This document shows positions 7,860-62,208 of a stretch of 64,000 nucleotides of DNA, piece by piece. This DNA is from an uncultured virus (IMG/VR IMGVR_UViG_3300017768_000003) (taxonomy: Duplodnaviria; Heunggongvirae; Uroviricota; Caudoviricetes), in the IMG/VR virus record IMGVR_UViG_3300017768_000003; one strand, written 5' to 3'. Under the pieces are notes generated by a model. It made no database searches. It worked only from the letters and a program-made list of their open reading frames with translations, and was not told the DNA's origin. Position 1 is the first letter of the stretch. Each line of letters begins with the position of its first letter. The translations under genes were made by a program, and so were the position numbers.

Positions 7860-8231
7860 CTATTGAGCTTTGTCTTTAACCATAGCTGTCCATATATAGT
7901 TCTTTTCCATCATAGCTTGTTTTTTAAGCTCGTATTTGTTTTTTCTTATAGCCTCATTTTTCTGTACTCGTTTTCTTTGAGAAGGCTTTATATATTCTTT
8001 TTTAGAACGATATTGTCCTATTACATCTTCATCTTTCATTTGACGTTTAAGATATTTCAACGCTCGCTCTAATGTACCTGTACTAGCATCTGGTACCTTT
8101 ACACCTGATGGGTTTCCTTCTACGAAGAATTCGTGTCTTCCTAATTTCTTTCTAAATTGTTTTCTTGGTTTATCACCTCTCTGATTTGTAGAAGAGTGAT
8201 TTCTGTGCTTTTGATTTCTGTTATAAGCCAT
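7860..8231 (-). CDS. rpsU: Phage-encoded 30S ribosomal protein bS21 with basic N-terminal extension
   Basis: VKV...LERALKYLKRQMK....I..YR.KK.YIKPS.RKR is the bS21 core; position beside scaffold/capsid genes matches known bS21 phages. Confidence 0.9.
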   Translation of the reverse strand: MAYNRNQKHRNHSSTNQRGDKPRKQFRKKLGRHEFFVEGNPSGVKVPDASTGTLERALKYLKRQMKDEDVIGQYRSKKEYIKPSQRKRVQKNEAIRKNKYELKKQAMMEKNYIWTAMVKDKAQ

Positions 8232-8263
8232 TTGTATTATTTTTAGTTAAACTTAATTTATAT

Positions 8264-8295
8264 CTAATATAACAAAAAAAATCGACATATGAAAA
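8264..8295 (-). promoter_or_regulatory. Early/host-polymerase-type promoter motif upstream of bS21
   Basis: TTTTCATATGTCGATTTTTTTTGTTATATTAG; 7 related copies in the window; 3' part resembles the Bacteroidota -7 box TAnnTTTG. Confidence 0.6.
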
Positions 8296-8330
8296 CATAT
8301 GCCGGTCTTTTTAATATTTGTTATTTTTTA

Positions 8331-9620
8331 TTATTGTTTTTTAAGTAACGATAAAAATTTTAGTATTTGTTTTGGTGATGTGCCTTGAGCCATAAATGCT
8401 TTATTTATCTGTCCCCAAGTATATGTTTTGTTATCACCGGTTGCCTCATTCATTATCGCTTCATATCTTAAATCAAACATTAAATCTTGAATTTTTCTAG
8501 ATGTAGAATTACCACCTGCTTTTTCAATAGCACGTCTAGCTTTCAATGCATGTTTAATTAGAATTACGTAATGTCCTTTTTTACCTTTAACATATCTGTC
8601 ACCTTGAATTTTAGAACCAACAGGTCTTGTATTTCCTCTTGGGTCGATTACTCCATATCCACCTTCGTTAATTATGCCTTCAGACATTTCTTTTACAATT
8701 GGTTTGTAGTTATTTTTATCCATTACTATTTTAGCTTTCTTTAATAGTTCTTGATAATATCCTTTAACTTCTCCAGCTCTTGATGCAACGTAATCTTTTC
8801 TCCAACTATCTACTCGCTCATCACCTTTTTCTTTTGCGTATTCTGCAGCATCTCTTACATAGTTCTCATAAGCTCTAACCATATTACCATAGTTATTTGA
8901 TATTGTTTGATATGAATCCCAGCCTGTAGAATACATTCCTTTTTTAAGCATATCTGTAGTAAACTTAAATACTTTTTCTGTAACAGATGTAGCTTCATCT
9001 AACATTTTCTTTAGAGCGTCTGGACCTTTTGCTAAAACTTTAGCTTGTAAAAGCTTTCTATATCTTTTTACATTTTGGTCAACAACATCTTTATTTTTCA
9101 TAAGTGCAGTTGCGCCTCGTTTAGAATCTGCTCTTGCAGCTTGTTTTTCTTTTGCTGAAGGTATGTCTGATAAAGCAATACTCAATACTTTGTCAGCTAC
9201 TTCGCTATATCTTTTATAGTTATCAAGTTTTTTACCTTGATTACCAATCATATCACCTGAACTCTTGCCACTATAATATCTTTGTTTTGGCCAATACAGA
9301 GATTTTTTACCTATTGTAACACCTATAATACCTGGCTTTAACCTCCATTCATATCCAGTGTCATATGGGTTTTTCTTTTCTGTATTTACAATAAAGATAT
9401 TCAAGTGGTCATTGGAAGGTGTAGCACCACCAAGTACATTAGCATCTTCTACATCTGACCATGCAAAACCTCTTGACTTTGCAGTTACATCAAAGAATTT
9501 TCTATCACCAGAATCCATTAGCTTAAATAGATTTGTTATTTTTGTAGATGCAAATTTCTCTGTTATTAGAGATTTCATTATCTCTTCTTTTATCATTTTC
9601 TGTAGTTCAGATTTTTTCAT
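8331..9620 (-). CDS. Putative internal head protein (modular)
   Basis: MKKSELQKMIKEE leader; (I/L/M)xE protease-type sites at module junctions (LITE, IINE, IMNE). Confidence 0.6.
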   Translation of the reverse strand: MKKSELQKMIKEEIMKSLITEKFASTKITNLFKLMDSGDRKFFDVTAKSRGFAWSDVEDANVLGGATPSNDHLNIFIVNTEKKNPYDTGYEWRLKPGIIGVTIGKKSLYWPKQRYYSGKSSGDMIGNQGKKLDNYKRYSEVADKVLSIALSDIPSAKEKQAARADSKRGATALMKNKDVVDQNVKRYRKLLQAKVLAKGPDALKKMLDEATSVTEKVFKFTTDMLKKGMYSTGWDSYQTISNNYGNMVRAYENYVRDAAEYAKEKGDERVDSWRKDYVASRAGEVKGYYQELLKKAKIVMDKNNYKPIVKEMSEGIINEGGYGVIDPRGNTRPVGSKIQGDRYVKGKKGHYVILIKHALKARRAIEKAGGNSTSRKIQDLMFDLRYEAIMNEATGDNKTYTWGQINKAFMAQGTSPKQILKFLSLLKKQ

Positions 9621-17152: not shown

Positions 17153-19429
17153 TTAGAAATATATCATTCCTGTAATTTGATTTATTGGAGCAAACGCTCC
17201 TGTTAATTTATATGTTTTTCCTTTATATACAAATACCAAACCTTCACTTGGTACTATCGATTTCATGCCGCCAATTGAATTTAATTTATTAAGCTGTTGT
17301 GATAATCGATTTATTTTTTTAATATCGCCACCTTTTTTTACAACTGATATTGCAGATTTTATTTGCTTTCTTATATTCTGCACTGCCTTATCAGGGTTGG
17401 CTGCCAAGAACCCTTCTGCATTTTTAAGTACCTCAGCACCTAGTTCGAAAAATAACTTTTCAAATGGAAGCATATTCTTTTTTACTTGGTCGGCATGTTT
17501 CATTTTATCTATATCAATTGCCTTTGCAAGTGTTTTTTCGTCTGATATTGTTTTCTTATTCAACCTAAATGATTTATCAAAAAATGCCCAACGTTTTACC
17601 AGTCCCATCTTTGTTTTATTATCTATCCCTTTTAGTTTTTTGTCTACATAATCACCCCACCAAGCTTGATGATATTCACCAAAAGTACTTGAGTCTGACA
17701 TGTTAAACTTTTTCATTAAACTATTTAGCTTACCTAGGAAATAAGGTTTTTTAGCAGAATAATCTTGATGGGGATTTACCTTTAAGAATTGAGGTCCTAT
17801 AATAGAAAAGTTTTTTTGTATATTTGCATCAACTTGTTTTATCATACCTGCAAGTATTCTACCACCGTCTGCTATTGCTCCAATTGGAGTGCCGTCTTTA
17901 TATTGTAGTACGTTGTGAAATTGAAGATTCGGTGCGTCATAATTAACAACATTAGAAGATGCAGGGTACATTATTTCCATATTTACCCAGTTGTTACCAT
18001 CATCAAAAATCTTTTTTATTTGTTTATCATTTAGAGATTTTATAGCATTTGACAAATCATTCATAGCGTAATTAAAAGCTTTTTCTATATTACCTCTACC
18101 TGCAAACTTTTTTGCTATTGCCTTAGAATCTACACCACCTCGTTTTATATCACCTGCATTTCTTGCTGCCTTTAATCCTTTGTTCCAAGTAATGAATAAA
18201 TTCTGACCATCTGTTTTTTCAGTTGCCTTTTCGTCAATATCTAATTTACCTTGTAATGCAATATCTATTATTTGTCGAAAATCTCCAAATGTAAGTCCTT
18301 TGTCATCAAATGGGTGAGACATGTGGCCATAAGCTCCGCCTTCTAACAAAAGCATTTCTTTAATTAACGTACCATCTTTCTGTGTTGTTGGTTCATCAGA
18401 ATTTGTCGTTGCAGATATTTCTGCTCCTAGATAATTTACAAATTCATATCCAACTCTTGTTGCAATGTACTTGGACCACTTAGCCCATCTATTAAATGCA
18501 CTTTTACCTTTTTTGTCAGAAAGATAATTTGTACCACCAATGGTTCCAGGCTTGCCAACAGGAAAATATGACACAGCTGCTGTAGGTCCTCCACTCATAT
18601 CTTTTTTGAATGCGGTATCGTGTTGAAAAAACTCTTCAGCTCCTGTAAGATAATTAAGTACTTCCATACCAGGATTTATATATTTTTCAATATTTTTGCC
18701 AAACTTTTTCCAAGACTTTTGATTGCCCCAATAACCTCTAGGTCCATCATCTACATTATCACCTATTGCTGTTGAGTTTTCTTTTAATAATTTTGGTATG
18801 TCGAAGTAATAGCAAAAGCCTTCAATTATTTCGTTTAACTTTTCAAGTTTATTTACTATTAGTTTGTAATTTTTTGTATGGCCGAAAATACCTTTGAACA
18901 ATTTTAGTTTATCTTTTTTGTCTAATGATTTATCACCAAGAGCAGTCCGTATTGTTGTACCGCTCATCTCTCCATATCCACTTACCTTTAGACTTACATG
19001 TGGAGCTATAATTGTATATGCTCCTTCTTTATATCCAACTTCAGCTTTACCTTTCCAGGGTCTGAAGAATTTACCACCTAATCTTTGTGCATCTTTTTTA
19101 CCAACCATAAATACAGCTGCAGTAGTTTCTGGGTCATATTTACTTAAGATTTCTGTAGCTTGGTATGGATTTTTAACTTGCACAACATTTGATATCCCGT
19201 GAGAATTTATTATCTTTTTCTTTTCATTAAAGCTAAATGGAGATTTCGGTAAAGCAACTTTACCAGACGTTGCAACATAAGCTTTGTCAAACTGTCCTGT
19301 TAGCCACTGATAGGTTTTTGCGTGATGCTTACCCATAGGTTGGAACCTACCAGGATATATAGCAATGATTACTTTTATTTTAGAATCTTCTTCTACAATT
19401 TGATTCGCTAGCCATTTACCTAAACTCAT
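17153..19429 (-). CDS. Multidomain protein: HIGH-type nucleotidyltransferase-like N-terminus plus ligase-like (KxDG) C-terminal domain
   Basis: YPGRFQPMGKHH and SGT.IR (Rossmann NTase); GGAYGHMSHP...EKTDG...EGLVF...YKLTG (ligase motifs I, IV, V). Confidence 0.65.
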   Translation of the reverse strand: MSLGKWLANQIVEEDSKIKVIIAIYPGRFQPMGKHHAKTYQWLTGQFDKAYVATSGKVALPKSPFSFNEKKKIINSHGISNVVQVKNPYQATEILSKYDPETTAAVFMVGKKDAQRLGGKFFRPWKGKAEVGYKEGAYTIIAPHVSLKVSGYGEMSGTTIRTALGDKSLDKKDKLKLFKGIFGHTKNYKLIVNKLEKLNEIIEGFCYYFDIPKLLKENSTAIGDNVDDGPRGYWGNQKSWKKFGKNIEKYINPGMEVLNYLTGAEEFFQHDTAFKKDMSGGPTAAVSYFPVGKPGTIGGTNYLSDKKGKSAFNRWAKWSKYIATRVGYEFVNYLGAEISATTNSDEPTTQKDGTLIKEMLLLEGGAYGHMSHPFDDKGLTFGDFRQIIDIALQGKLDIDEKATEKTDGQNLFITWNKGLKAARNAGDIKRGGVDSKAIAKKFAGRGNIEKAFNYAMNDLSNAIKSLNDKQIKKIFDDGNNWVNMEIMYPASSNVVNYDAPNLQFHNVLQYKDGTPIGAIADGGRILAGMIKQVDANIQKNFSIIGPQFLKVNPHQDYSAKKPYFLGKLNSLMKKFNMSDSSTFGEYHQAWWGDYVDKKLKGIDNKTKMGLVKRWAFFDKSFRLNKKTISDEKTLAKAIDIDKMKHADQVKKNMLPFEKLFFELGAEVLKNAEGFLAANPDKAVQNIRKQIKSAISVVKKGGDIKKINRLSQQLNKLNSIGGMKSIVPSEGLVFVYKGKTYKLTGAFAPINQITGMIYF

Positions 19430-20127
19430 TATTTTCTCAGCTCCAATTCTTTTTTAATCCACTTTTTTGCTATATGATTTTGTATAGGTCTTTTTATAAA
19501 TTCTCTTGCGCCACTCTTAATAATCTTATCAAACTCCTTATATTCACTGTTGTCTACAACAAGCATGTTACTGCTTCCAAACAATCCTTGAAATTTACCT
19601 AAATTATTTTGTACAGCTTTCCAAGACTTCTGTACCAATTCAGTCGGGAGCTTTCTTTCTCTATCATGATTTCTTTTAAGTGCAACATCTAAATCAGTAT
19701 TAACAAAAACCATAAAACAATCGTATCCTACTTCCTGTAGTCTTTTTTTCTGTTTTGCTATTTTTGCATAATCTTTTCCTGTACCATCGATTAGTAAACC
19801 TAGCCTACCGTTTATATAATTTTTTAACGCAGCATCTCTAACTTTTTTACTTTTATTTCTTAACTCCATTGCTTTTTCATATTGAGCGGGAGTCATCTTT
19901 GCAATATCTTGAGATATCCCAGACATCTGTAAATATGTTTCAAAGTATTTATCGCTATTAACAGATTTTAATCCATCAGCAGAAACATGCGGCATTTTTT
20001 CTGGCATACCGAATAGAGTTGATGCAGCATAAGATTTTCCACTACCTGGTCCGCCGGCTGTAAAGATTGCTTTGAAGATTCCTGGGTCGTATACACCTTC
20101 GTTTAATATGTCGAATAATTTAATCAC
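19429..20127 (-). CDS. P-loop kinase (zeta-toxin/polynucleotide-kinase-like)
   Basis: GGPGSGKS, NSD, IDGTG, R...R lid; likely start is GTG at 20127 giving MIKLFDILNE leader. Confidence 0.8.
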   Translation of the reverse strand: MIKLFDILNEGVYDPGIFKAIFTAGGPGSGKSYAASTLFGMPEKMPHVSADGLKSVNSDKYFETYLQMSGISQDIAKMTPAQYEKAMELRNKSKKVRDAALKNYINGRLGLLIDGTGKDYAKIAKQKKRLQEVGYDCFMVFVNTDLDVALKRNHDRERKLPTELVQKSWKAVQNNLGKFQGLFGSSNMLVVDNSEYKEFDKIIKSGAREFIKRPIQNHIAKKWIKKELELRK

Positions 20128-20296
20128 CTGACAGTGCACTCTTTATAGTATTTAATTCTGCTACCAATTCATCTATCTTTTCTTTTAGTAGTTTTATTGT
20201 TAACGTTTCTGGTAGCTCATCATTTGCCATATACGATTTTTCTATATTATGAGTACCGTCATCTAATTCTTGTGTTACTGTTTTTATATCTGCCAT
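20120..20296 (-). CDS. Small 58 aa protein not in ORF track
   Basis: MADIKTVTQELDDG...KLLKEKIDELVAELNTIKSALSGD fills the intergenic gap exactly. Confidence 0.7.
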   Translation of the reverse strand: MADIKTVTQELDDGTHNIEKSYMANDELPETLTIKLLKEKIDELVAELNTIKSALSGD

Positions 20297-34396: not shown

Positions 34397-34837
34397 TTAT
34401 AACTTTATCTCATTTATTTGAGTTTCAATTCCTTTAGTAAACCTTACTTTAGCAAATCTTCTTGGACCTATACAATCATTATAATATTCATTTTTTGAAG
34501 ATACGTGGAACCTATGATGTAAGTTTTCTTCTAAATAATTAACCTGGCCTTTGGTTTCACCAAGTATTAAAATTTCAAATCTAAAATTATCCTTTCCTAA
34601 TTTATTTATATCGCTGTTTAGAAGTTTAGAAGAACCTGTATATTCTCTCCAATTTGAGTCTTTTCTTATAACCTTTCTTCTTTTCTTACCTGCAACTTTG
34701 ACTCTTCTAGTTGTGCCAAAATATTTTCTACCAATATATTTTTTATTAGACTTTATATTTGTAATTAAATAAACAAAACCAAAATATTCTTCTGGTGACT
34801 CAGTTAACAGCTCACCTTTATATAACCAATGGCTCAT
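34397..34837 (-). CDS. GIY-YIG endonuclease
   Basis: FVYLITN...KKYIGRK; Y.GSS; conserved E and N. Confidence 0.85.
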   Translation of the reverse strand: MSHWLYKGELLTESPEEYFGFVYLITNIKSNKKYIGRKYFGTTRRVKVAGKKRRKVIRKDSNWREYTGSSKLLNSDINKLGKDNFRFEILILGETKGQVNYLEENLHHRFHVSSKNEYYNDCIGPRRFAKVRFTKGIETQINEIKL

Positions 34838-54297: not shown

Positions 54298-55293
54298 TTA
54301 TTTACCCTTAACTTTATTTCTTATATTATTAAGTATACCTGAAACAGAGTTTATTTTGCTTTCAAAGTCGTTAATTTGACGTAAACCGCTGGCTACCTTA
54401 CTATTAAGTGCCTCAACTTTTTCTAAGCGGTTCATTCCTGACAGGTCTAAGCCTAAATCCTTCATCTCACATTCCTTGTCTTCAAGGCTTTTTTGTTCTT
54501 TTATTTTAGAGAATGCAAAATTAGCTGCAACAACCAACGCTATTGCAAGTGGGTCAAATACAAATACAATTAACAGCAAAAACCAATTAACTACCTTTCC
54601 CATATCGTATCCAGTTGTCTCTGCAAGATATTTAAGAGGTCCAAGCTCTCTTTGTTCTTCATTGCCAATTTCTTTTTCTAACGATACGACATCTAACTTA
54701 TTTATTGAATCAAGTACAGCCTCAATTTTAATATTTACAGCGTCTCTATCGTCTATTGTACTATTTAATTCGTTTTGCAAAGCTTTTCTAGCAGAACTCG
54801 ATGTTGTTGTAATTAACTGACCTGATTCTCTATCAATATATTGTACTTGAGCTGGGTTTGATAATGCTATTCTTAAATCTGATATTGATTTGCTGAGTTG
54901 ACCTTTTTCTATTTGTAAATCTGCCTTTTGTTCTTGGAACCTAACTTGTTTTTGATTTATTATTGCTAGTGATTTATCTAATATCTCAGATTTTGTTGCA
55001 GTCTCTTGATATGCTCCAGATAAAAATCCATATATACCTCCTGATGTAATTATCATTAAGATAAAGCATGCAGTAGCTAAATATGTTCTAAGTATTTTAT
55101 TTATTGTGTCCCAGTATTGATATAAAAGCGATGCTACTACTAATTTAGCAAATTCTAACGAACCTGCCATTATTATCACCTCGGTCGATGCACCAGCAAA
55201 CAGCTTGCTGAGTCCAAACACTGAATAGAATGCAGCTGAACCTGAAACAGCCAAAGCTGCGATCGCTATTATAGTAGGAAAAAGTTTATTCAT
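54298..55293 (-). CDS. Multi-TM coiled-coil protein
   Basis: Three N-terminal TM helices, coiled coil, C-terminal TM (FVFDPLAIAL). Confidence 0.8.
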   Translation of the reverse strand: MNKLFPTIIAIAALAVSGSAAFYSVFGLSKLFAGASTEVIIMAGSLEFAKLVVASLLYQYWDTINKILRTYLATACFILMIITSGGIYGFLSGAYQETATKSEILDKSLAIINQKQVRFQEQKADLQIEKGQLSKSISDLRIALSNPAQVQYIDRESGQLITTTSSSARKALQNELNSTIDDRDAVNIKIEAVLDSINKLDVVSLEKEIGNEEQRELGPLKYLAETTGYDMGKVVNWFLLLIVFVFDPLAIALVVAANFAFSKIKEQKSLEDKECEMKDLGLDLSGMNRLEKVEALNSKVASGLRQINDFESKINSVSGILNNIRNKVKGK

Positions 55294-56222
55294 TAGTTCC
55301 AGTCAATTTTGTTTATATTTTGCTGGCTGTCATATACAAGTGTGTATAAATTTCGATTGTCTATTTTTTTAATTCGTATCTCTGTCTCTAATATACCAAA
55401 GCTTAACAACTGGAACCTTATTCGGTTTATTTTCTTTAAGTCAAAATTGCTTATACAAGTAAAATTATCTATAAAGCTTATCACAACTTTATTTTCATAA
55501 TCAATTTCTTCTTCACCTTCAAATATATCGTCAGCACTAAACTTTTCGCTTTCGTTATATGACGGCCAAGTTCCCGCATTTTCAGGTCCTGAGTTGTACC
55601 CCTCAAAAGGAGGTATTAGTGATTTACCTTGAACTAGTCGTTCGAGATAATATTCTTTTATTCTTTTATCAAGCTTTCCTAACCAAATATTAAAGATTTG
55701 AAAGTCATTTTCAAATATCGCTTTATCTTCTATTGAAAGTATAGACCAAAATTCTTTACTTGTTATTTCGCCACTATATTTTTTATTCCCATCTAGAAAA
55801 GTACCATCATTTATTTTTTTATCAAGTCTAGACTTCTCTTTTTCTGAAAAATTCTTTAATAAATTTATCATTTTATCTATAGAATTTTCCTTTACTGTAC
55901 TTTTCTTTTTTGGAAGGGGCAATATGTCTAAGTCACTATATGTTATTTTTGGCATGAGTACTTTTAGACTTTTGTCTAATATTTCTTTAATCTCCTGACA
56001 TTTTTCATATTCTTCAGTTTCAATGAAATATAATATCATATCCTCTAATACTTCACGGAGTTCTTTCTCATCGACATCGATAGGGTCATAGAGCATAAAA
56101 ATTTCTCTGCCTTCTTTTCCTAGATTCTCTAATTTAATCTTGCCCGTAACAACCAAATATGTTGTTTCGAAAGCCTCATCAAATCCTTTATCTTCGTCGC
56201 CTTTGTACATAGTTCTTTCCAT
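55293..56222 (-). CDS. Hypothetical protein with UVR-like helical motif
   Basis: YFIETEEYEKCQEIKE; ATG at 56222 preferred because the tracked TTG start overlaps the tmRNA end. Confidence 0.65.
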   Translation of the reverse strand: MERTMYKGDEDKGFDEAFETTYLVVTGKIKLENLGKEGREIFMLYDPIDVDEKELREVLEDMILYFIETEEYEKCQEIKEILDKSLKVLMPKITYSDLDILPLPKKKSTVKENSIDKMINLLKNFSEKEKSRLDKKINDGTFLDGNKKYSGEITSKEFWSILSIEDKAIFENDFQIFNIWLGKLDKRIKEYYLERLVQGKSLIPPFEGYNSGPENAGTWPSYNESEKFSADDIFEGEEEIDYENKVVISFIDNFTCISNFDLKKINRIRFQLLSFGILETEIRIKKIDNRNLYTLVYDSQQNINKIDWN

Positions 56223-56238
56223 AATTTTATTTTTTACC

Positions 56239-56470
56239 TCCAACCACCGAAGCTTAGACGGTATGCTTCTTCAACCGTTGGGTCAGGGTGCTTAAATTAA
56301 GCCGCCATCGCCATTTCAACTTGTGCGCCAGTTAATTGCGTATTGAACTTCCTCATACCCTTATCTCTCTGTCAAATCCAGTCAGCCCCGTATCGTTAAA
56401 ATTGTTTGTGGAGCTGGTGGGTTTCGAACCCACGTCCAAAAGAGTAGCTAATATAAGTAATAGCGTTCAA
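56239..56470 (-). ncRNA. ssrA: Circularly permuted (two-piece) tmRNA; tag GAQVEMAMAA
   Basis: Minus strand order: T-arm GTGGG-TTCGAAA-CCCAC and acceptor 3' strand CAGCTCCA (to 56409), 19-nt spacer, 5' end GGGGCTGACTGGATTTGAC (56389) giving G3:U70, then TAACT-GGC resume context and tag 56329-56297. Confidence 0.93.
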
Positions 56471-56472
56471 AT

Positions 56473-56480
56473 ATAAATAT
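56473..56480 (-). promoter_or_regulatory. Late-type promoter motif upstream of tmRNA
   Basis: ATATTTAT, identical to the motif before structural genes. Confidence 0.55.
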
Positions 56481-56488
56481 CATATATA

Positions 56489-56713
56489 TTACTGTTTAGA
56501 AGCTTTTGCTGCATTCTTATTATAAGATTTTCTTCTGTAATATTTCTTAGATTTTTTTGCGTGAGCCTCTTTTATCTGTTCTTTTAATAAACTGTTAACA
56601 AACATTTTATCTGATAACAAATCATTGACTCCTGTATATCTTCTAAGAAAGTATACTGAGGTTATAATTGCTCCTACTAGTAAACCTAATATTAAACTTA
56701 AAATTGATTCCAT
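56489..56713 (-). CDS. Small single-TM protein
   Basis: N-terminal TM, basic tail, AAGGAG SD. Confidence 0.7.
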   Translation of the reverse strand: MESILSLILGLLVGAIITSVYFLRRYTGVNDLLSDKMFVNSLLKEQIKEAHAKKSKKYYRRKSYNKNAAKASKQ

Positions 56714-56731
56714 AAATATTTACTCCTTTTT

Positions 56732-57058
56732 TTATTTTGTGTAACCTTCCCATGTACCTGAGTTATGTTCTAACATCCCCATTCTTAAAGCTTTTCTGTA
56801 TGTTGATTGAGCATCTTGAATCTCTTCTATCAATCTATTACATTCTGAATGAGTAAGTTCAAATTTACTATTTCCAATATTTAATGTACAGATTAAAGGC
56901 TGATTAGCTTCTCCCTGAGGATTTTTAGCTTTAGCTCCTTTCATAAGCTTATGGCTTATTGTACTCCATAACTTTCCATATTTGCTAGGATTAAAAGGTT
57001 TTTTCTGGTTGTGTTTAATTGGTAACTGATTACCTGGTCCTGTTCTATGTTTTAACAT
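56732..57058 (-). CDS. Hypothetical protein
   Basis: 108 aa ORF. Confidence 0.65.
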   Translation of the reverse strand: MLKHRTGPGNQLPIKHNQKKPFNPSKYGKLWSTISHKLMKGAKAKNPQGEANQPLICTLNIGNSKFELTHSECNRLIEEIQDAQSTYRKALRMGMLEHNSGTWEGYTK

Positions 57059-57269: not shown

Positions 57270-57506
57270 TTACTTAAAAGGATAAATTCCTTCTAATAAC
57301 TGAGTCATATATACTTCTATCAGATTTTGCTTGTATTCAATTGACTCATTTTTCGACATTATCTTTTCTATATAATGACATACAGGACTATCAGCTGGCT
57401 GTATTATAGCGTCAGCTTTATATAAATCCGTTACACCTTCTGCACCATTATACTTAAATGCAGATATAATTCTCTCTTTGTCCAAATATCTTTTATTAAA
57501 TCCCAT
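57270..57506 (-). CDS. Hypothetical protein
   Basis: 78 aa, MGFNKRYL start. Confidence 0.65.
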   Translation of the reverse strand: MGFNKRYLDKERIISAFKYNGAEGVTDLYKADAIIQPADSPVCHYIEKIMSKNESIEYKQNLIEVYMTQLLEGIYPFK

Positions 57507-58242
57507 TTTTTTGTTTCTCTAATTGTTTTTCAAAATATCTTTCGTGGTTTCTTGTAGGTGTATAAAGGTATATACATGATTGTTGAGAGTTTCTAGCATT
57601 ACCAGATAGTACAGCTCCATTATATATTGACGACATAACTTTCTTGCCTTTAGGTATATGACCGCCTTTACCGTCATCTTTCCAAGTGACATTCTCATAA
57701 TGCGCCATTATCTTTCCTTTACACCTTATTAGTATTTCAGTAGCCAATACTTTATGTTCTTTATTTGAATATCCTTTTGCATAATCAATCCAGTCTATAT
57801 CTCCATACGGGTCTTGTGAAGTTGATTGTCGTACATTCAGAACCACTACCTTCCTTTTATTTTTTATAAATTCTTTTTTCAATTCAAGTAAGTCTATATC
57901 AATACCTGTATTTAATTCTTCTTCAAGTCTATTAAATTTTACAAAAAAGTCTTTACCTCCGTGACCACGTTTGATGTTTAGTAGACCTGAGGGTATACAT
58001 ATTTGTGGGAATTTCCAACAGTTTTCAATCATCATTGTCTCTGCATTTTCTGCATCTTCACGAGACTTAAATCTTCCAAGAAGTCTAAATTTGAATTCGT
58101 TGTTCTTAAGCCATTCTGCTTTTCGACTAGTATCATCTTCGCTTATATGGCTTGTTACTCTATCGCTTTGTCCTACGCCAACGTATGCATATAAATCTTT
58201 ATTGTTAAAATAACCGTATACGTAATACTTATAATTCTTCAT
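57496..58242 (-). CDS. GIY-YIG (LEM-3-like) nuclease-domain protein
   Basis: YYVYGY...YVGVG...R...H; E..A...E; L.N...GHG. Confidence 0.65.
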   Translation of the reverse strand: MKNYKYYVYGYFNNKDLYAYVGVGQSDRVTSHISEDDTSRKAEWLKNNEFKFRLLGRFKSREDAENAETMMIENCWKFPQICIPSGLLNIKRGHGGKDFFVKFNRLEEELNTGIDIDLLELKKEFIKNKRKVVVLNVRQSTSQDPYGDIDWIDYAKGYSNKEHKVLATEILIRCKGKIMAHYENVTWKDDGKGGHIPKGKKVMSSIYNGAVLSGNARNSQQSCIYLYTPTRNHERYFEKQLEKQKNGI

Positions 58243-59656: not shown

Positions 59657-60943
59657 TTAACAATCTCTTTCACCTTCGTATATGTGTTTAAGTACCGGGA
59701 ATCTCAATGACCATTCACCATCTTTATTTTGGCTCTCCTCGAAATATTGTACTGTAACAGTTTTTCCAAGAATTTTGCTATGGTCTTTGTAGAACTCTTT
59801 ACGTTGGTCGATACTAAATCCAGAACCAACGCCGACTTTATTACCCTTATGTAATATTACTATATTACTTAGGCAGTTGATTGTTTTTTCCTTACCGTCC
59901 TCAACTATTCTTATATCTCCATTTGTCGCACCAACAACTTTGTATTCAGCATCATGCATTTCTTTAACTTTCAATATATCTTTAGAGCGCTTACCTTTGT
60001 AGCCTGAGTTTTTTCTAATCATAATACCTTCATGACCTAAGTCTGTAGCTTCTTTGCTAAGATGGTGAAAGTATTTATCGTTAGGTATAATATCCTGGTC
60101 AAGTACTTCTATAATATTTTCATTACAACCTGCTACATGTAATGCGTTAATTGAATTTTCGTATCTTACATACAAAGGCGCTACACCTTTTTGTTCATCG
60201 AATTCCTGAAGTGTTAGCATATCGAATACAAACATTTTGAGATTATCAATGGTGTGGTTTTTACGTCTTATTTGTTTCATAATATCTTGGAAATTTTCAT
60301 TTCCATTTTCATCGACAATACAAACCTCGCCATCCAAAACAAAGTCACCTTCTATTTTACTAACCTCTTCTAGTAACACACCTAGTGTTTCAAATTCTTT
60401 GCCACTTCTAGAATGAGCTGATATCTCATCTTGTTCTTTACGTATAATACATCTTACACCGTCAAGTTTTCTAGAACCAAACCATTCTTCGTTTTCAAAG
60501 TCTGGCATACTGTTCATAGCTTCTGCCAATGCAACTTTGAATTGAGGTATAAGTCCAGGCATCCCTTTATTGATAATGCTTGCCGCTGTACGAGTTTTAA
60601 GGTCCTTGTCTAGTATATTATATATAAGCTGTTCATGTTCCTTGTTTGCAAGTACAAAAGCATTGACTGCACCAACTGCCGCGTGGCCTGTAATATTTCT
60701 ATTACTTAGGTCGTCGAGTAAATCGAATAATCCGTAAGCATCATCGCTGTCGCAGATGTGAGATAGTTTCTTACAGTTTTTAGAGCCTACACCAAATTGT
60801 ATATAAGGACTATATATTCTAACAAGAATTTCTCTTATATCATTCATTTCAGAGTATTGGTCAAGCACTTTAATTTTTTCATTAGTTCTAGTAGACTGAT
60901 TAAGGTCGTCTACCAATCTTTGTAATATGTTTAATGTATTCAT
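59657..60943 (-). CDS. lig: ATP-dependent DNA ligase
   Basis: KLDGVR, LDGE, FD, EGIM, KRSK..LK.K, VGSGFS, SLRFP. Confidence 0.95.
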   Translation of the reverse strand: MNTLNILQRLVDDLNQSTRTNEKIKVLDQYSEMNDIREILVRIYSPYIQFGVGSKNCKKLSHICDSDDAYGLFDLLDDLSNRNITGHAAVGAVNAFVLANKEHEQLIYNILDKDLKTRTAASIINKGMPGLIPQFKVALAEAMNSMPDFENEEWFGSRKLDGVRCIIRKEQDEISAHSRSGKEFETLGVLLEEVSKIEGDFVLDGEVCIVDENGNENFQDIMKQIRRKNHTIDNLKMFVFDMLTLQEFDEQKGVAPLYVRYENSINALHVAGCNENIIEVLDQDIIPNDKYFHHLSKEATDLGHEGIMIRKNSGYKGKRSKDILKVKEMHDAEYKVVGATNGDIRIVEDGKEKTINCLSNIVILHKGNKVGVGSGFSIDQRKEFYKDHSKILGKTVTVQYFEESQNKDGEWSLRFPVLKHIYEGERDC

Positions 60944-62070: not shown

Positions 62071-62136
62071 GTATATAAATATTTTGAGTTAAACTGAAGG
62101 TTGTTAACTTAATGTTAACATAAGGTTAAATTATAG

Positions 62137-62208
62137 TACCCCGACGGAGAATCGAACTCCGGTTACCAGGATGAAAACCTGGCGTCCTAACCACTAGACG
62201 ACCGGGGC
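62137..62208 (-). tRNA. tRNA-Glu (anticodon UUC)
   Basis: Full cloverleaf: GCCCCGG acceptor, CCAGG-TTTTCAT-CCTGG anticodon arm, CGGAG-TTCGATT-CTCCG T arm; CCA not encoded. Confidence 0.95.

Follow-up and report, generated by a model that had tools for sequence, protein, structure and literature searches.

A reduced two-piece transfer-messenger RNA gene with Bacteroidota-type ends in an uncultured marine T4-like phage

Two-piece transfer-messenger RNAs (tmRNAs), encoded by circularly permuted ssrA genes, have been described from Alphaproteobacteria, a betaproteobacterial group and cyanobacteria. In its account of permutation, the 2025 tmRNA database places the rearrangement in 'three main bacterial clades' and lists 79 phage sequences (PMC11915505). 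The sections of PMC9004378 on phage genes report two-piece tmRNAs in the OM43 phage Melnitz, in pelagimyophages and in some cyanophages, with 53 of 133 unique phage tmRNAs called as two-piece, 50 of the 53 being marine or aquatic; the Melnitz tmRNA occurs with a glutamine riboswitch, and those phage genes are of alphaproteobacterial or cyanobacterial type. Here we describe a permuted tmRNA gene on the minus strand of a 64,000-nucleotide stretch of an uncultured virus of the Caudoviricetes (IMG/VR IMGVR_UViG_3300017768_000003; this whole stretch is called the window). The gene is unusual in descent and build, with Bacteroidota-type ends, no pseudoknot 1 and a length of about 213 nucleotides (nt). 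In our view it is probably a working, reduced two-piece ssrA of a marine T4-like myophage that was permuted separately from the known cases and belongs to a phage-borne lineage.

The initial annotation, made from the letters alone, had read the region 56239-56470 as a phage-encoded circularly permuted tmRNA, and its minus-strand coordinates (3' part ending at 56409, 5' part starting at 56389, a 19-nt spacer between them, tag at 56329-56297) are correct to the base. On direct reading, the 3' half stands upstream of the 5' half on the minus strand. The T-arm, acceptor 3' strand and discriminator A (GGAC-GUGGG-UUCGAAA-CCCAC-CAGCUCC-A) end at 56409; GGGGCUGACUGGAUUUGAC starts at 56389, directly after the 19-nt spacer, and the first bases of the coding piece, from 56389 on the minus strand, are GGGGCTGACTGGATTTGAC. 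The bases that follow discriminator A56409 are CAA, so that CCA is not encoded, just as had been noted. ARAGORN and the Rfam models had been named as checks. ARAGORN called a permuted tmRNA (tmRNA*) at 56206-56500 (minus strand) with the tag GAQVEMAMAA*, and RF04321 (tmRNA_permuted) matched 56297-56468 (minus strand) over model positions 1-213 of 213 with 66.2 bits, against a gathering cut-off of 47 bits (E = 1.5e-10 for the whole 64-kilobase (kb) window against 4227 families); the models of the alphaproteobacterial, betaproteobacterial and cyanobacterial lineages stayed below their cut-offs. Since the RF04321 match is also the sole tmRNA match in the window, the call and the score with its E-value exclude chance. 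Apart from the tmRNA, a single RNA gene was detected in the window, a tRNA-Glu (62136-62208). This is a real, phage-encoded permuted tmRNA gene that is almost certainly functional, and as a phage two-piece tmRNA it is ordinary in kind.

The limits of the pieces were refined by conservation and covariation in relatives to 56468-56409, 56408-56390 and 56389 to about 56237, the last being approximate and set solely by where conservation fades. The parts are as follows.

56409..56468, minus strand: acceptor piece, 60 nt (RF04321 coverage, identity among 12 relatives, helix covariation)
56468-56465, minus strand: distal-helix strand GAAC of the acceptor piece
56444-56439, minus strand: P2a 3' strand CUCUUU
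56433-56417, minus strand: T-arm GUGGG-UUCGAAA-CCCAC
56416-56410, minus strand: acceptor 3' strand CAGCUCC
56409, minus strand: discriminator A
56390..56408, minus strand: intervening spacer, 19 nt, beginning CAA, presumed to be removed (least conserved segment)
56237..56389, minus strand: coding piece, about 153 nt (ARAGORN, RF04321, 12-sequence alignment, pair counts)
56389-56383, minus strand: acceptor 5' strand GGGGCUG, in which G3 pairs with U70
In the coding piece after the acceptor 5' strand, minus strand: D-loop-like ACUGGAUUUGAC
56370-56365, minus strand: P2a 5' strand AGAGAG
56348-56345, minus strand: distal-helix strand GUUC of the coding piece, followed by a 15-nt linker to the tag
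56297..56329, minus strand: tag frame GGC GCA CAA GUU GAA AUG GCG AUG GCG GCU UAA, giving GAQVEMAMAA and a stop (ARAGORN)
56329-56327, minus strand: resume codon GGC, behind UUAACU
56290..56302, minus strand: stop-codon hairpin (helix 5) GCUU-AAUUU-AAGC, four pairs, containing UAA
56249..56278, minus strand: single H-type pseudoknot (stem 1 counted, stem 2 by eye)
56278-56274 with 56262-56258, minus strand: pseudoknot stem 1, ACGGU/ACCGU
56269-56265 with 56253-56249, minus strand: pseudoknot stem 2, GAAGC/GCUUC
After the pseudoknot, minus strand: G-rich tail closing the coding piece

Conservation was examined in an alignment of 12 distinct IMG/VR sequences obtained from pattern scans (four near-identical relatives first, then more distant ones). 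Six helices with 31 pairs were tested: the distal 4-base-pair (bp) helix, P2a, the T-arm, the acceptor stem, the stop-codon hairpin and pseudoknot stem 1. Paired cells amounted to 99.5% of 370, against just 38-52% (and 0-1 compensatory pairs) when the partners were slid by 1-3 columns. All six helices contained a compensatory pair with both sides changed, and none of 500 shuffles reached the covariation score. The initial annotation had proposed a 7-bp acceptor stem with the G3:U70 alanine determinant and had named covariation of the acceptor stem and T-arm among homologues as decisive. The stem is paired and G3:U70 present in 12/12 relatives, and compensatory pairs occur in both helices, as a C-G/G-C swap in the acceptor stem and a U-A/A-U swap in the T-arm. 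The 59 distinct sequences of the wider family described below add an acceptor stem GGGGAUG/CAUCUCC and T-arms with CCGGG, GCGGG and GGGGG. The distal helix, which links the start of the acceptor piece with the stretch of the coding piece just ahead of the tag, occurs as GAAC/GUUC, GACC/GGUC and GAUC/GAUC. In the stop-codon hairpin, all pairs are formed where letters are present, with one pair changed from U-A to C-G in two of the 12. Pseudoknot stem 1 is 98.3% paired with a compensatory change from C-G to U-A, and stem 2, judged by eye without a formal count, reads GAAGC/GCUUC within the window's clade and has GGGC/GCCC in that position in other clades.

Mean pairwise identity was 0.588 in the 6 bases upstream, 0.906 in the acceptor piece, 0.560 in the spacer, 0.870 in the tRNA-like part and P2 of the coding piece and 0.888 in the tag. 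The spacer, 16-22 nt long in the close family, is thus free to change with both its flanks held, as expected if it is cut out. The tag frame GAQVEMAMAA in its TAACT context, which the initial annotation had picked out, coincides with the ARAGORN call; it ends in a hydrophobic ...AA degron, and its last four residues, AMAA, are invariant in the 12 relatives while their alanine codons vary (GCG/GCA, GCG/GCT, GCT/GCC), which argues that the frame is read. Several further helices were tried and given up. A P2b helix, CUUAU/AUAAG, pairs just in the window's clade (4/12) and is broken in the other eight, and a scan for any conserved helix in that region gave merely 3-bp runs, so it was left as an internal loop. 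A helix closing the pseudoknot showed no conserved run, and one joining the 3' tail to the acceptor piece showed nothing beyond G-U-rich 4-bp runs.

To place the gene among tmRNAs we compared its ends with bacterial genomes. The 29-base 3' end occurs exactly at 17 loci in 185,579 species genomes (one genome per species), 17/17 in Bacteroidota and mostly in metagenome-assembled genomes of marine Flavobacteriales. ARAGORN called 15 of these loci as one-piece tmRNAs of 362-398 nt with the G-start tags GENNYALAA, GEYNYALAA, GDNNYALAA or GNNNYAMAA; contig ends truncate the remaining two. In 10/17 of these host-type loci the first 19 bases at the 5' end are the same as in the phage, and CCA is likewise not encoded in 10/17 (CAA, CTA or CTT stands there). 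The resume codon GGC lies behind UUAAUUGG in the host-type genes and behind UUAACUGG in the phage gene, and P2a keeps the same register, next to GAC/UGGAC, with different but still complementary letters. The tRNA-like ends and the GGC resume codon are accordingly of Bacteroidota type, and the view that Bacteroidota tmRNAs are normally one-piece with GGC-start tags agrees with 15/15 ARAGORN calls. No permuted form over the RF04321 cut-off was found in 151 sampled Flavobacteriales genomes (one order, many of them incomplete, prophages not covered), nor in five genomes with the identical 29-mer. The stop-codon hairpin motif GCUGCCUAA is not counted as evidence of origin because it also occurs in a beta-type phage gene, L059. 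A Bacteroidota-type origin is the most economical reading of these comparisons, and a permutation independent of the alpha, beta and cyano lineages is likely. Four Flavobacteriales genomes of about 0.6 Mb (L076-L079) each gave an RF04321 match below threshold (24.8-27.2 bits) at a shared position, about 10.9-11.1 kb along contig 1, which may represent a reduced endosymbiont tmRNA.

The strongest competing explanation, which we regard as unlikely, is that the gene was taken from an alpha, beta or cyano lineage, as in pelagiphages and Melnitz, and that its ends became host-like later by gene conversion or selection, with no separate permutation. Such genes are common in phages: a generic permuted-tmRNA pattern gave 21 loci in IMG/VR, and 12 of the 14 scanned outside the window's clade are of alpha or beta type, with encoded CCA, mostly Ala-start tags and 89-146 bits on RF04321, while 8/14 reach the beta or alpha cut-off. 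The best clan match of the window gene is itself beta_tmRNA (RF01850). This match is limited to model positions 78-165 of 331, the tRNA-like part, and scores 41 bits against a cut-off of 84; alpha_tmRNA (RF01849) and cyano_tmRNA (RF01851) gave lower-scoring overlapping clan matches, with no cut-off reached. The shared ends and resume motif could also have come from gene conversion with a host gene, and an nhmmer profile of the non-tRNA-like part found 4/44 loci, all in the window's clade, missing the host one-piece genes as well as Maribacter phage Panino and the crAss-like phage cr60_1, both discussed below. Because of this result, the Bacteroidota descent rests on the two conserved ends and the short resume motif. 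The beta-type outlier L046, at 63.5 bits on a model built from the window's family and so within the range of Bacteroidota-type genes, favors the same rival. Several features are hard to reconcile with it: a glycine GGC behind UAAC/UUGG as in 15/15 Bacteroidota genes, where most other phage genes have Ala-start (AN...) tags; the CCA that alpha/beta-type genes encode, absent here as in the 10 host-type genes; the lack of the post-P2 hairpin of the common permuted consensus; and 29- and 19-base ends identical to Flavobacteriales genes. The independent permutation put forward in the initial annotation therefore stands in part: the three lineage models were not satisfied, and independence is likely rather than shown, the profile having found no host likeness outside the ends and the resume motif.

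The second departure concerns the build. The two pieces total about 213 nt, compared to 362-398 nt for the one-piece host-type genes, and the resume codon lies at position 61 of the coding piece, compared to 95-99 in 15 host-type genes. Only 15 nt separate the distal helix from GGC, and the post-P2 hairpin of the RF04321 consensus corresponds here to a gap and four flagged non-pairs; together these leave no room for pseudoknot 1. To our knowledge, this pseudoknot is present between P2 and the resume codon in nearly all tmRNAs. Its lack is a clear departure, though no defining feature of the tmRNA_permuted family. Downstream of the tag there is one pseudoknot; the structural overview in PMC11915505 gives one-piece tmRNAs typically four pseudoknots in all.

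Such a reduced form might be a decoy that soaks up host SmpB or blocks host trans-translation, like the tRNA-like-only form of mycobacteriophage DS6A, whose inhibitory action is covered in parts of PMC11915505 and PMC4131195. The small size and missing pseudoknot 1 agree with this, and the RNA would compete for SmpB because its tRNA-like ends are identical to those of host-type tmRNAs. A decoy, however, needs no tag frame, resume context, stop hairpin or pseudoknot, yet all are conserved, with synonymous alanine codons and helix covariation, and a tag ending in AMAA is kept in 44/59 distinct family sequences; we therefore consider a decoy very improbable. A dead remnant of integration or excision at a host ssrA, or an assembly artefact, is hardly credible: tmRNA genes often serve as integration sites, and their 3' portions can be found in phages (passages in PMC9004378 and PMC11590407), but the same arrangement recurs on 67 IMG/VR contigs (59 distinct) and in 15 viral-metagenome DNA runs, the halves covary with each other across a freely evolving spacer while both are conserved, no integrase was seen among the window ORFs, and the loss of pairing or broken tag frame expected in most relatives is the opposite of what is seen.

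The preferred reading, a working two-piece tmRNA of Bacteroidota type, suggests a mechanism for the RNA itself, which we infer from the gene order, the conserved helices and the conserved tag. The established knowledge of two-piece tmRNAs on which the proposed maturation is based reportedly goes back to Keiler, Shapiro and Williams in 2000. Summaries of such maturation are included in PMC11915505 and PMC9004378. Minus-strand transcription would yield a single precursor. Cleavage by the host's RNase P immediately ahead of G56389 would release the 5' terminus of the coding piece; trimming would take away the 19-nt spacer as far as A56409, to which the CCA-adding enzyme of the host would attach CCA. 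Two RNAs of about 60+3 nt and about 153 nt would then be held together by the 7-bp acceptor stem, P2a and the distal 4-bp helix, and alanyl-tRNA synthetase would charge the pair with alanine via G3:U70. SmpB of the host, proposed because none is encoded in the window, would together with EF-Tu deliver the RNA to ribosomes that have stalled on broken mRNAs, where translation would resume at GGC and add G(A/E)QVEMAMAA. The likely gain would be that ribosomes are kept free while host mRNA is destroyed or cut by defence nucleases, and that unfinished proteins are disposed of under the phage's own degradation tag. As to origin, a one-piece Flavobacteriales tmRNA gene would have been permuted separately from the alpha- and beta-proteobacterial and cyanobacterial events.

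Several points weigh against this reading, in addition to the nhmmer result, the possible gene conversion and the L046 score given above. The RNA data consist of assembled contigs, which cannot reveal transcript ends: four marine RNA libraries (three studies) supplied contigs that match with 99-100% identity at 55994-56206, 56075-56290, 56199-56379, 56412-56631 and 56509-56900; none covers the spacer, where a shared 29-mer breaks assemblies, and the libraries may contain DNA. They do not bear on processing in either direction. The precursor's minimum-energy fold does not surpass those of shuffles (z = -1.25) and is thus uninformative, so the support for the structure is comparative only. Pseudoknot 1 matters in Escherichia coli tmRNA, and a form that lacks it might work poorly or differently. 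No SmpB was found among the window ORFs by PHROGs and Pfam, and the host is identified only indirectly. As for transcription, TAnnTTTG is the -7 promoter motif of Bacteroidota. A match at 56475-56468, next to the start of the acceptor piece, was rejected as a promoter, since it is not kept in relatives and RNA would start after the covarying GAAC strand. The motif is mildly over-represented in the window (121 matches against 92 +/- 9), with no intergenic enrichment (3/52 minus-strand matches against 6% expected). A sigma-70 promoter scan (3 promoter-like sites against 2.3 +/- 1.4 in shuffles) and a terminator scan (none) were uninformative.

Based on the Bacteroidota-type end pattern, 67 loci (59 distinct) were found in IMG/VR. 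CCA is encoded right after the discriminator in just 3/59 distinct sequences, and the 44 tags ending in AMAA mentioned above were called by ARAGORN. We delimit this unnamed lineage of minimal two-piece tmRNAs of Bacteroidota phages by permuted order, a 5' end ...UGG.UUUGAC, a glycine resume codon behind UAAC/U-UGG, usually no CCA, the presence of P2a and the distal helix, and the lack of pseudoknot 1; the window gene has every one of these features. On the window-family model, unseen family members scored 124-149 bits, Panino, a crAss-related gut group and the loci L041, L085 and L098 scored 62-79 bits (the L083 gut-phage group reaching 71-74 bits over the full length of the model), and 11/12 alpha/beta-type phage genes scored 26-46 bits, L046 being the twelfth. 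RF04321 ranks the Bacteroidota-type and alpha/beta-type phage groups in the opposite order. The shared build suggests one permutation event common to Panino, the gut phages and the marine phages, groups that nhmmer does not link. The initial annotation had suggested a search of related phages and had doubted whether the lineage was catalogued. The search succeeded, with 59 distinct sequences; as to the doubt, phage two-piece tmRNAs are published, as the phage section of PMC9004378 attests, and the build is already labelled in GenBank and RefSeq. A full-text literature search returned no paper on a Bacteroidota-type or phage-born tmRNA permutation, and the database of PMC11915505 may file the lineage without comment. 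The lineage thus seems to be labelled in public records, yet undescribed.

Among GenBank phages, blastn gave no match for the 3-kb region and only T-arm-length matches for the tmRNA alone (79 records, none with 80% coverage). No tmRNA occurs in Flavobacterium phage vB_FspM_immuto or Microcystis phage Mel-JY01; that of LR756508 is one-piece, and crAss-like cr6_1 gave no RF04321 match. A 179.8-kb IMG/VR phage with terminal repeats (G002, loci L006 and L017) was considered as an intermediate, as it has a one-piece tmRNA with the same 29-mer, but was rejected for its unrelated capsid. Its tmRNA scores 107 bits on RF00023 and has the tag AKTVQPVGMAA and TTA after the discriminator; its last 29 bases equal those of the window and of the Flavobacteriales genes.

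Some IMG/VR loci show further variation. Among members of the window's family, L066 (= L103) has by eye a 37-residue tag ending ...ESVYAMAA, with no ARAGORN call on L066 and a different call on L103, and L127 has the ARAGORN tag ATLAAIRLLGTKEIATKEPVLAMAA in a much longer frame; since L066 and L127 share ...LAAIRLL..., this long-tag variant seems conserved. L041 and L051 are AT-rich permuted tmRNAs with no encoded CCA. L051 has the tag GNFNVVDYTCVA and 68.2 bits on RF04321; L041, which lies among tRNA genes, has no ARAGORN tmRNA call, 57.9 bits on RF04321 and a possible Asp-start tag, DEQLLAAA, by eye. L147 and L148 belong to a 99.3-kb complete gut phage (G163) with 2 ORFs of at least 350 amino acids (aa) in the first 40 kb under table 11, which may have a reassigned stop codon; one of its proteins is 25% identical to a giant protein of cr6_1.

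The surroundings of the gene are those of a T4-like myophage according to PHROGs and Pfam. A greedy ORF call placed all of its 67 ORFs on the minus strand; G+C is 31-37%. The structural and packaging genes comprise the major head protein, portal, large terminase, head-tail adaptor, baseplate wedge, gp25 and long tail fibre, with a T4-type prohead protease; the DNA enzymes are an SbcCD-like nuclease, an ATP-dependent DNA ligase and a SegE-type endonuclease, and PhoH is also encoded. The head protein is 47.5% identical to that of Flavobacterium phage vB_FspM_immuto, the nearest cultured capsid, 46.4% to Microcystis phage Mel-JY01 and 35.4% to Rhodothermus phage RM378. A 115.6-kb IMG/VR contig estimated to be 60% complete (G003) has an 89% identical head protein and the same tmRNA. 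The DNA ligase (59657-60943) lies 3.2 kb from the tmRNA in the window; in a 75.5-kb relative, a ligase with 45% identity at 8194-9504 and a tmRNA match at about 12.5 kb are about 3 kb apart. This similar spacing in a relative indicates that the tmRNA gene is old in the phage lineage. Like SmpB, a CCA-adding enzyme was not found among the window ORFs (PHROGs, Pfam), and the RNA would therefore rely on the host for both; the host is likely, on indirect evidence, a Bacteroidota bacterium. The genes on either side are as follows.

55293..56222, minus strand: downstream gene of unknown function with no PHROG or Pfam match (ORF list and relatives); the ORF lister starts it at TTG 56243, whereas ATG 56222-56220 is kept in relatives and gives no overlap with the RNA
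56489..56713, minus strand: upstream 74-aa gene of unknown function with no family match, ending 20 nt before the acceptor piece

The 123-aa ORF at 7860-8231 (minus strand), situated between head genes, has an S21 ribosomal protein domain (PF01165) at 38.7 bits, where the cut-off is 27. Its presence alongside the tmRNA suggests that the phage tampers with host translation. Other ORFs on the minus strand contain a Zeta_toxin/AAA_33-type kinase domain (19429-20139, 39.9 bits) and a SegE-type GIY-YIG endonuclease (34397-34837, 108.6 bits), and a weak homing-endonuclease-like ORF (phrog_314, E = 2e-4; 57496-58242) lies 1 kb upstream of the tmRNA.

A broader reading, towards which we lean with some reserve, would make this a fourth origin of two-piece tmRNA and the first on phages: a one-piece Bacteroidota ssrA permuted, stripped to about 213 nt with pseudoknot 1 lost and one pseudoknot kept, and since then carried by unrelated groups of Bacteroidota phages (marine T4-like myophages, the podovirus Panino and gut crAss-like phages) that would take over ribosome rescue and label stalled host proteins with a tag of their own. 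If true, no natural tag-encoding tmRNA build in free use would be smaller, and pseudoknot 1 would be dispensable in nature. With nothing beyond its tRNA-like part, P2, tag, stop hairpin and a single pseudoknot, the gene would offer a natural lower limit for trans-translation and a test of the need for pseudoknot 1. Should a Bacteroidota gene have been permuted separately on phages, the rearrangement known from three main bacterial clades and mitochondria would have recurred once more. The lineage occurs in abundant marine and gut Bacteroidota phages and, with S21, may point to a wider phage programme for the takeover of host translation. The phage-specific tag would provide a direct handle, as ...QVEMAMAA ends detected by mass spectrometry would reveal proteins rescued during infection.

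Compared to known systems, the gene shares with the two-piece tmRNAs of Alphaproteobacteria, the betaproteobacterial group and cyanobacteria (RF01849, RF01850, RF01851) the gene order and the presumed maturation, and all are caught by RF04321, but it lies below all three lineage cut-offs. With the two-piece tmRNAs of Melnitz and other marine myophages it has in common a T4-like marine phage and a permuted ssrA; alpha/beta-type phage genes, in contrast, encode CCA, have mostly Ala-start tags and score 89-146 bits on RF04321. The one-piece tmRNA of Flavobacteriales and other Bacteroidota (RF00023) is like it in the 29-base 3' end, the 19-base 5' end (10/17), the GGC resume codon, the often unencoded CCA and the P2a register, and differs in its standard order, its length of 362-398 nt, a resume codon at 95-99 with room for pseudoknot 1 and the tag GENNYALAA.

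Two phages outside the T4-like group carry the closest annotated counterparts. The crAss-like phage cr60_1 (Suoliviridae; NC_055891.1, 12121-12567) has a RefSeq 'transfer-messenger RNA, SsrA' that ARAGORN called as permuted with the tag GNTSYVMDYTRLAA; it resembles the window gene in a glycine start behind AUAACUGGC, CAA instead of CCA and a pseudoknot stem ACGGC/GUCGU. It belongs to a gut phage of a different order, with a different tag and a spacer of about 150 nt, which explains its 40.3 bits on RF04321 (below the cut-off) and 21.5 bits on the window-family model. For cr114_1, cr125_1, cr115_1 and cr52_1, a tmRNA is indicated by annotation and a blastn match, ARAGORN having been run on cr60_1 only. 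A partial RAGATH-20 match (L150, 1-61), truncated where the locus ends, lies about 250 nt upstream of the cr60_1 tmRNA and scores 61.9 bits, below the cut-off of 101.4. Maribacter phage Panino (GenBank PP540027, 27557-27889) has an annotated tmRNA, described in the genome section of its paper as 'one tmRNA (SsrA) gene' with no mention there of a permuted build (PMC11590407). Outside the ends, neither blastn nor nhmmer detected likeness between the Panino and window tmRNAs, and blastn with the Panino tmRNA found only itself. Panino is a 77-kb podovirus and not a T4-like myophage, with a spacer of 39 nt and the tag GKVMNVSFAPTVRQFA. Its tmRNA, called as permuted by ARAGORN (RF04321, 62.2 bits), nevertheless has the same plan as that of the window: no CCA (CTA), a Gly-start tag behind UAACUGG, P2a adjoining GAC/GGAC, the distal 4-bp helix 16 nt further on and a full-length match of 68.8 bits to the window-family model, in a phage whose host is a cultured flavobacterium.

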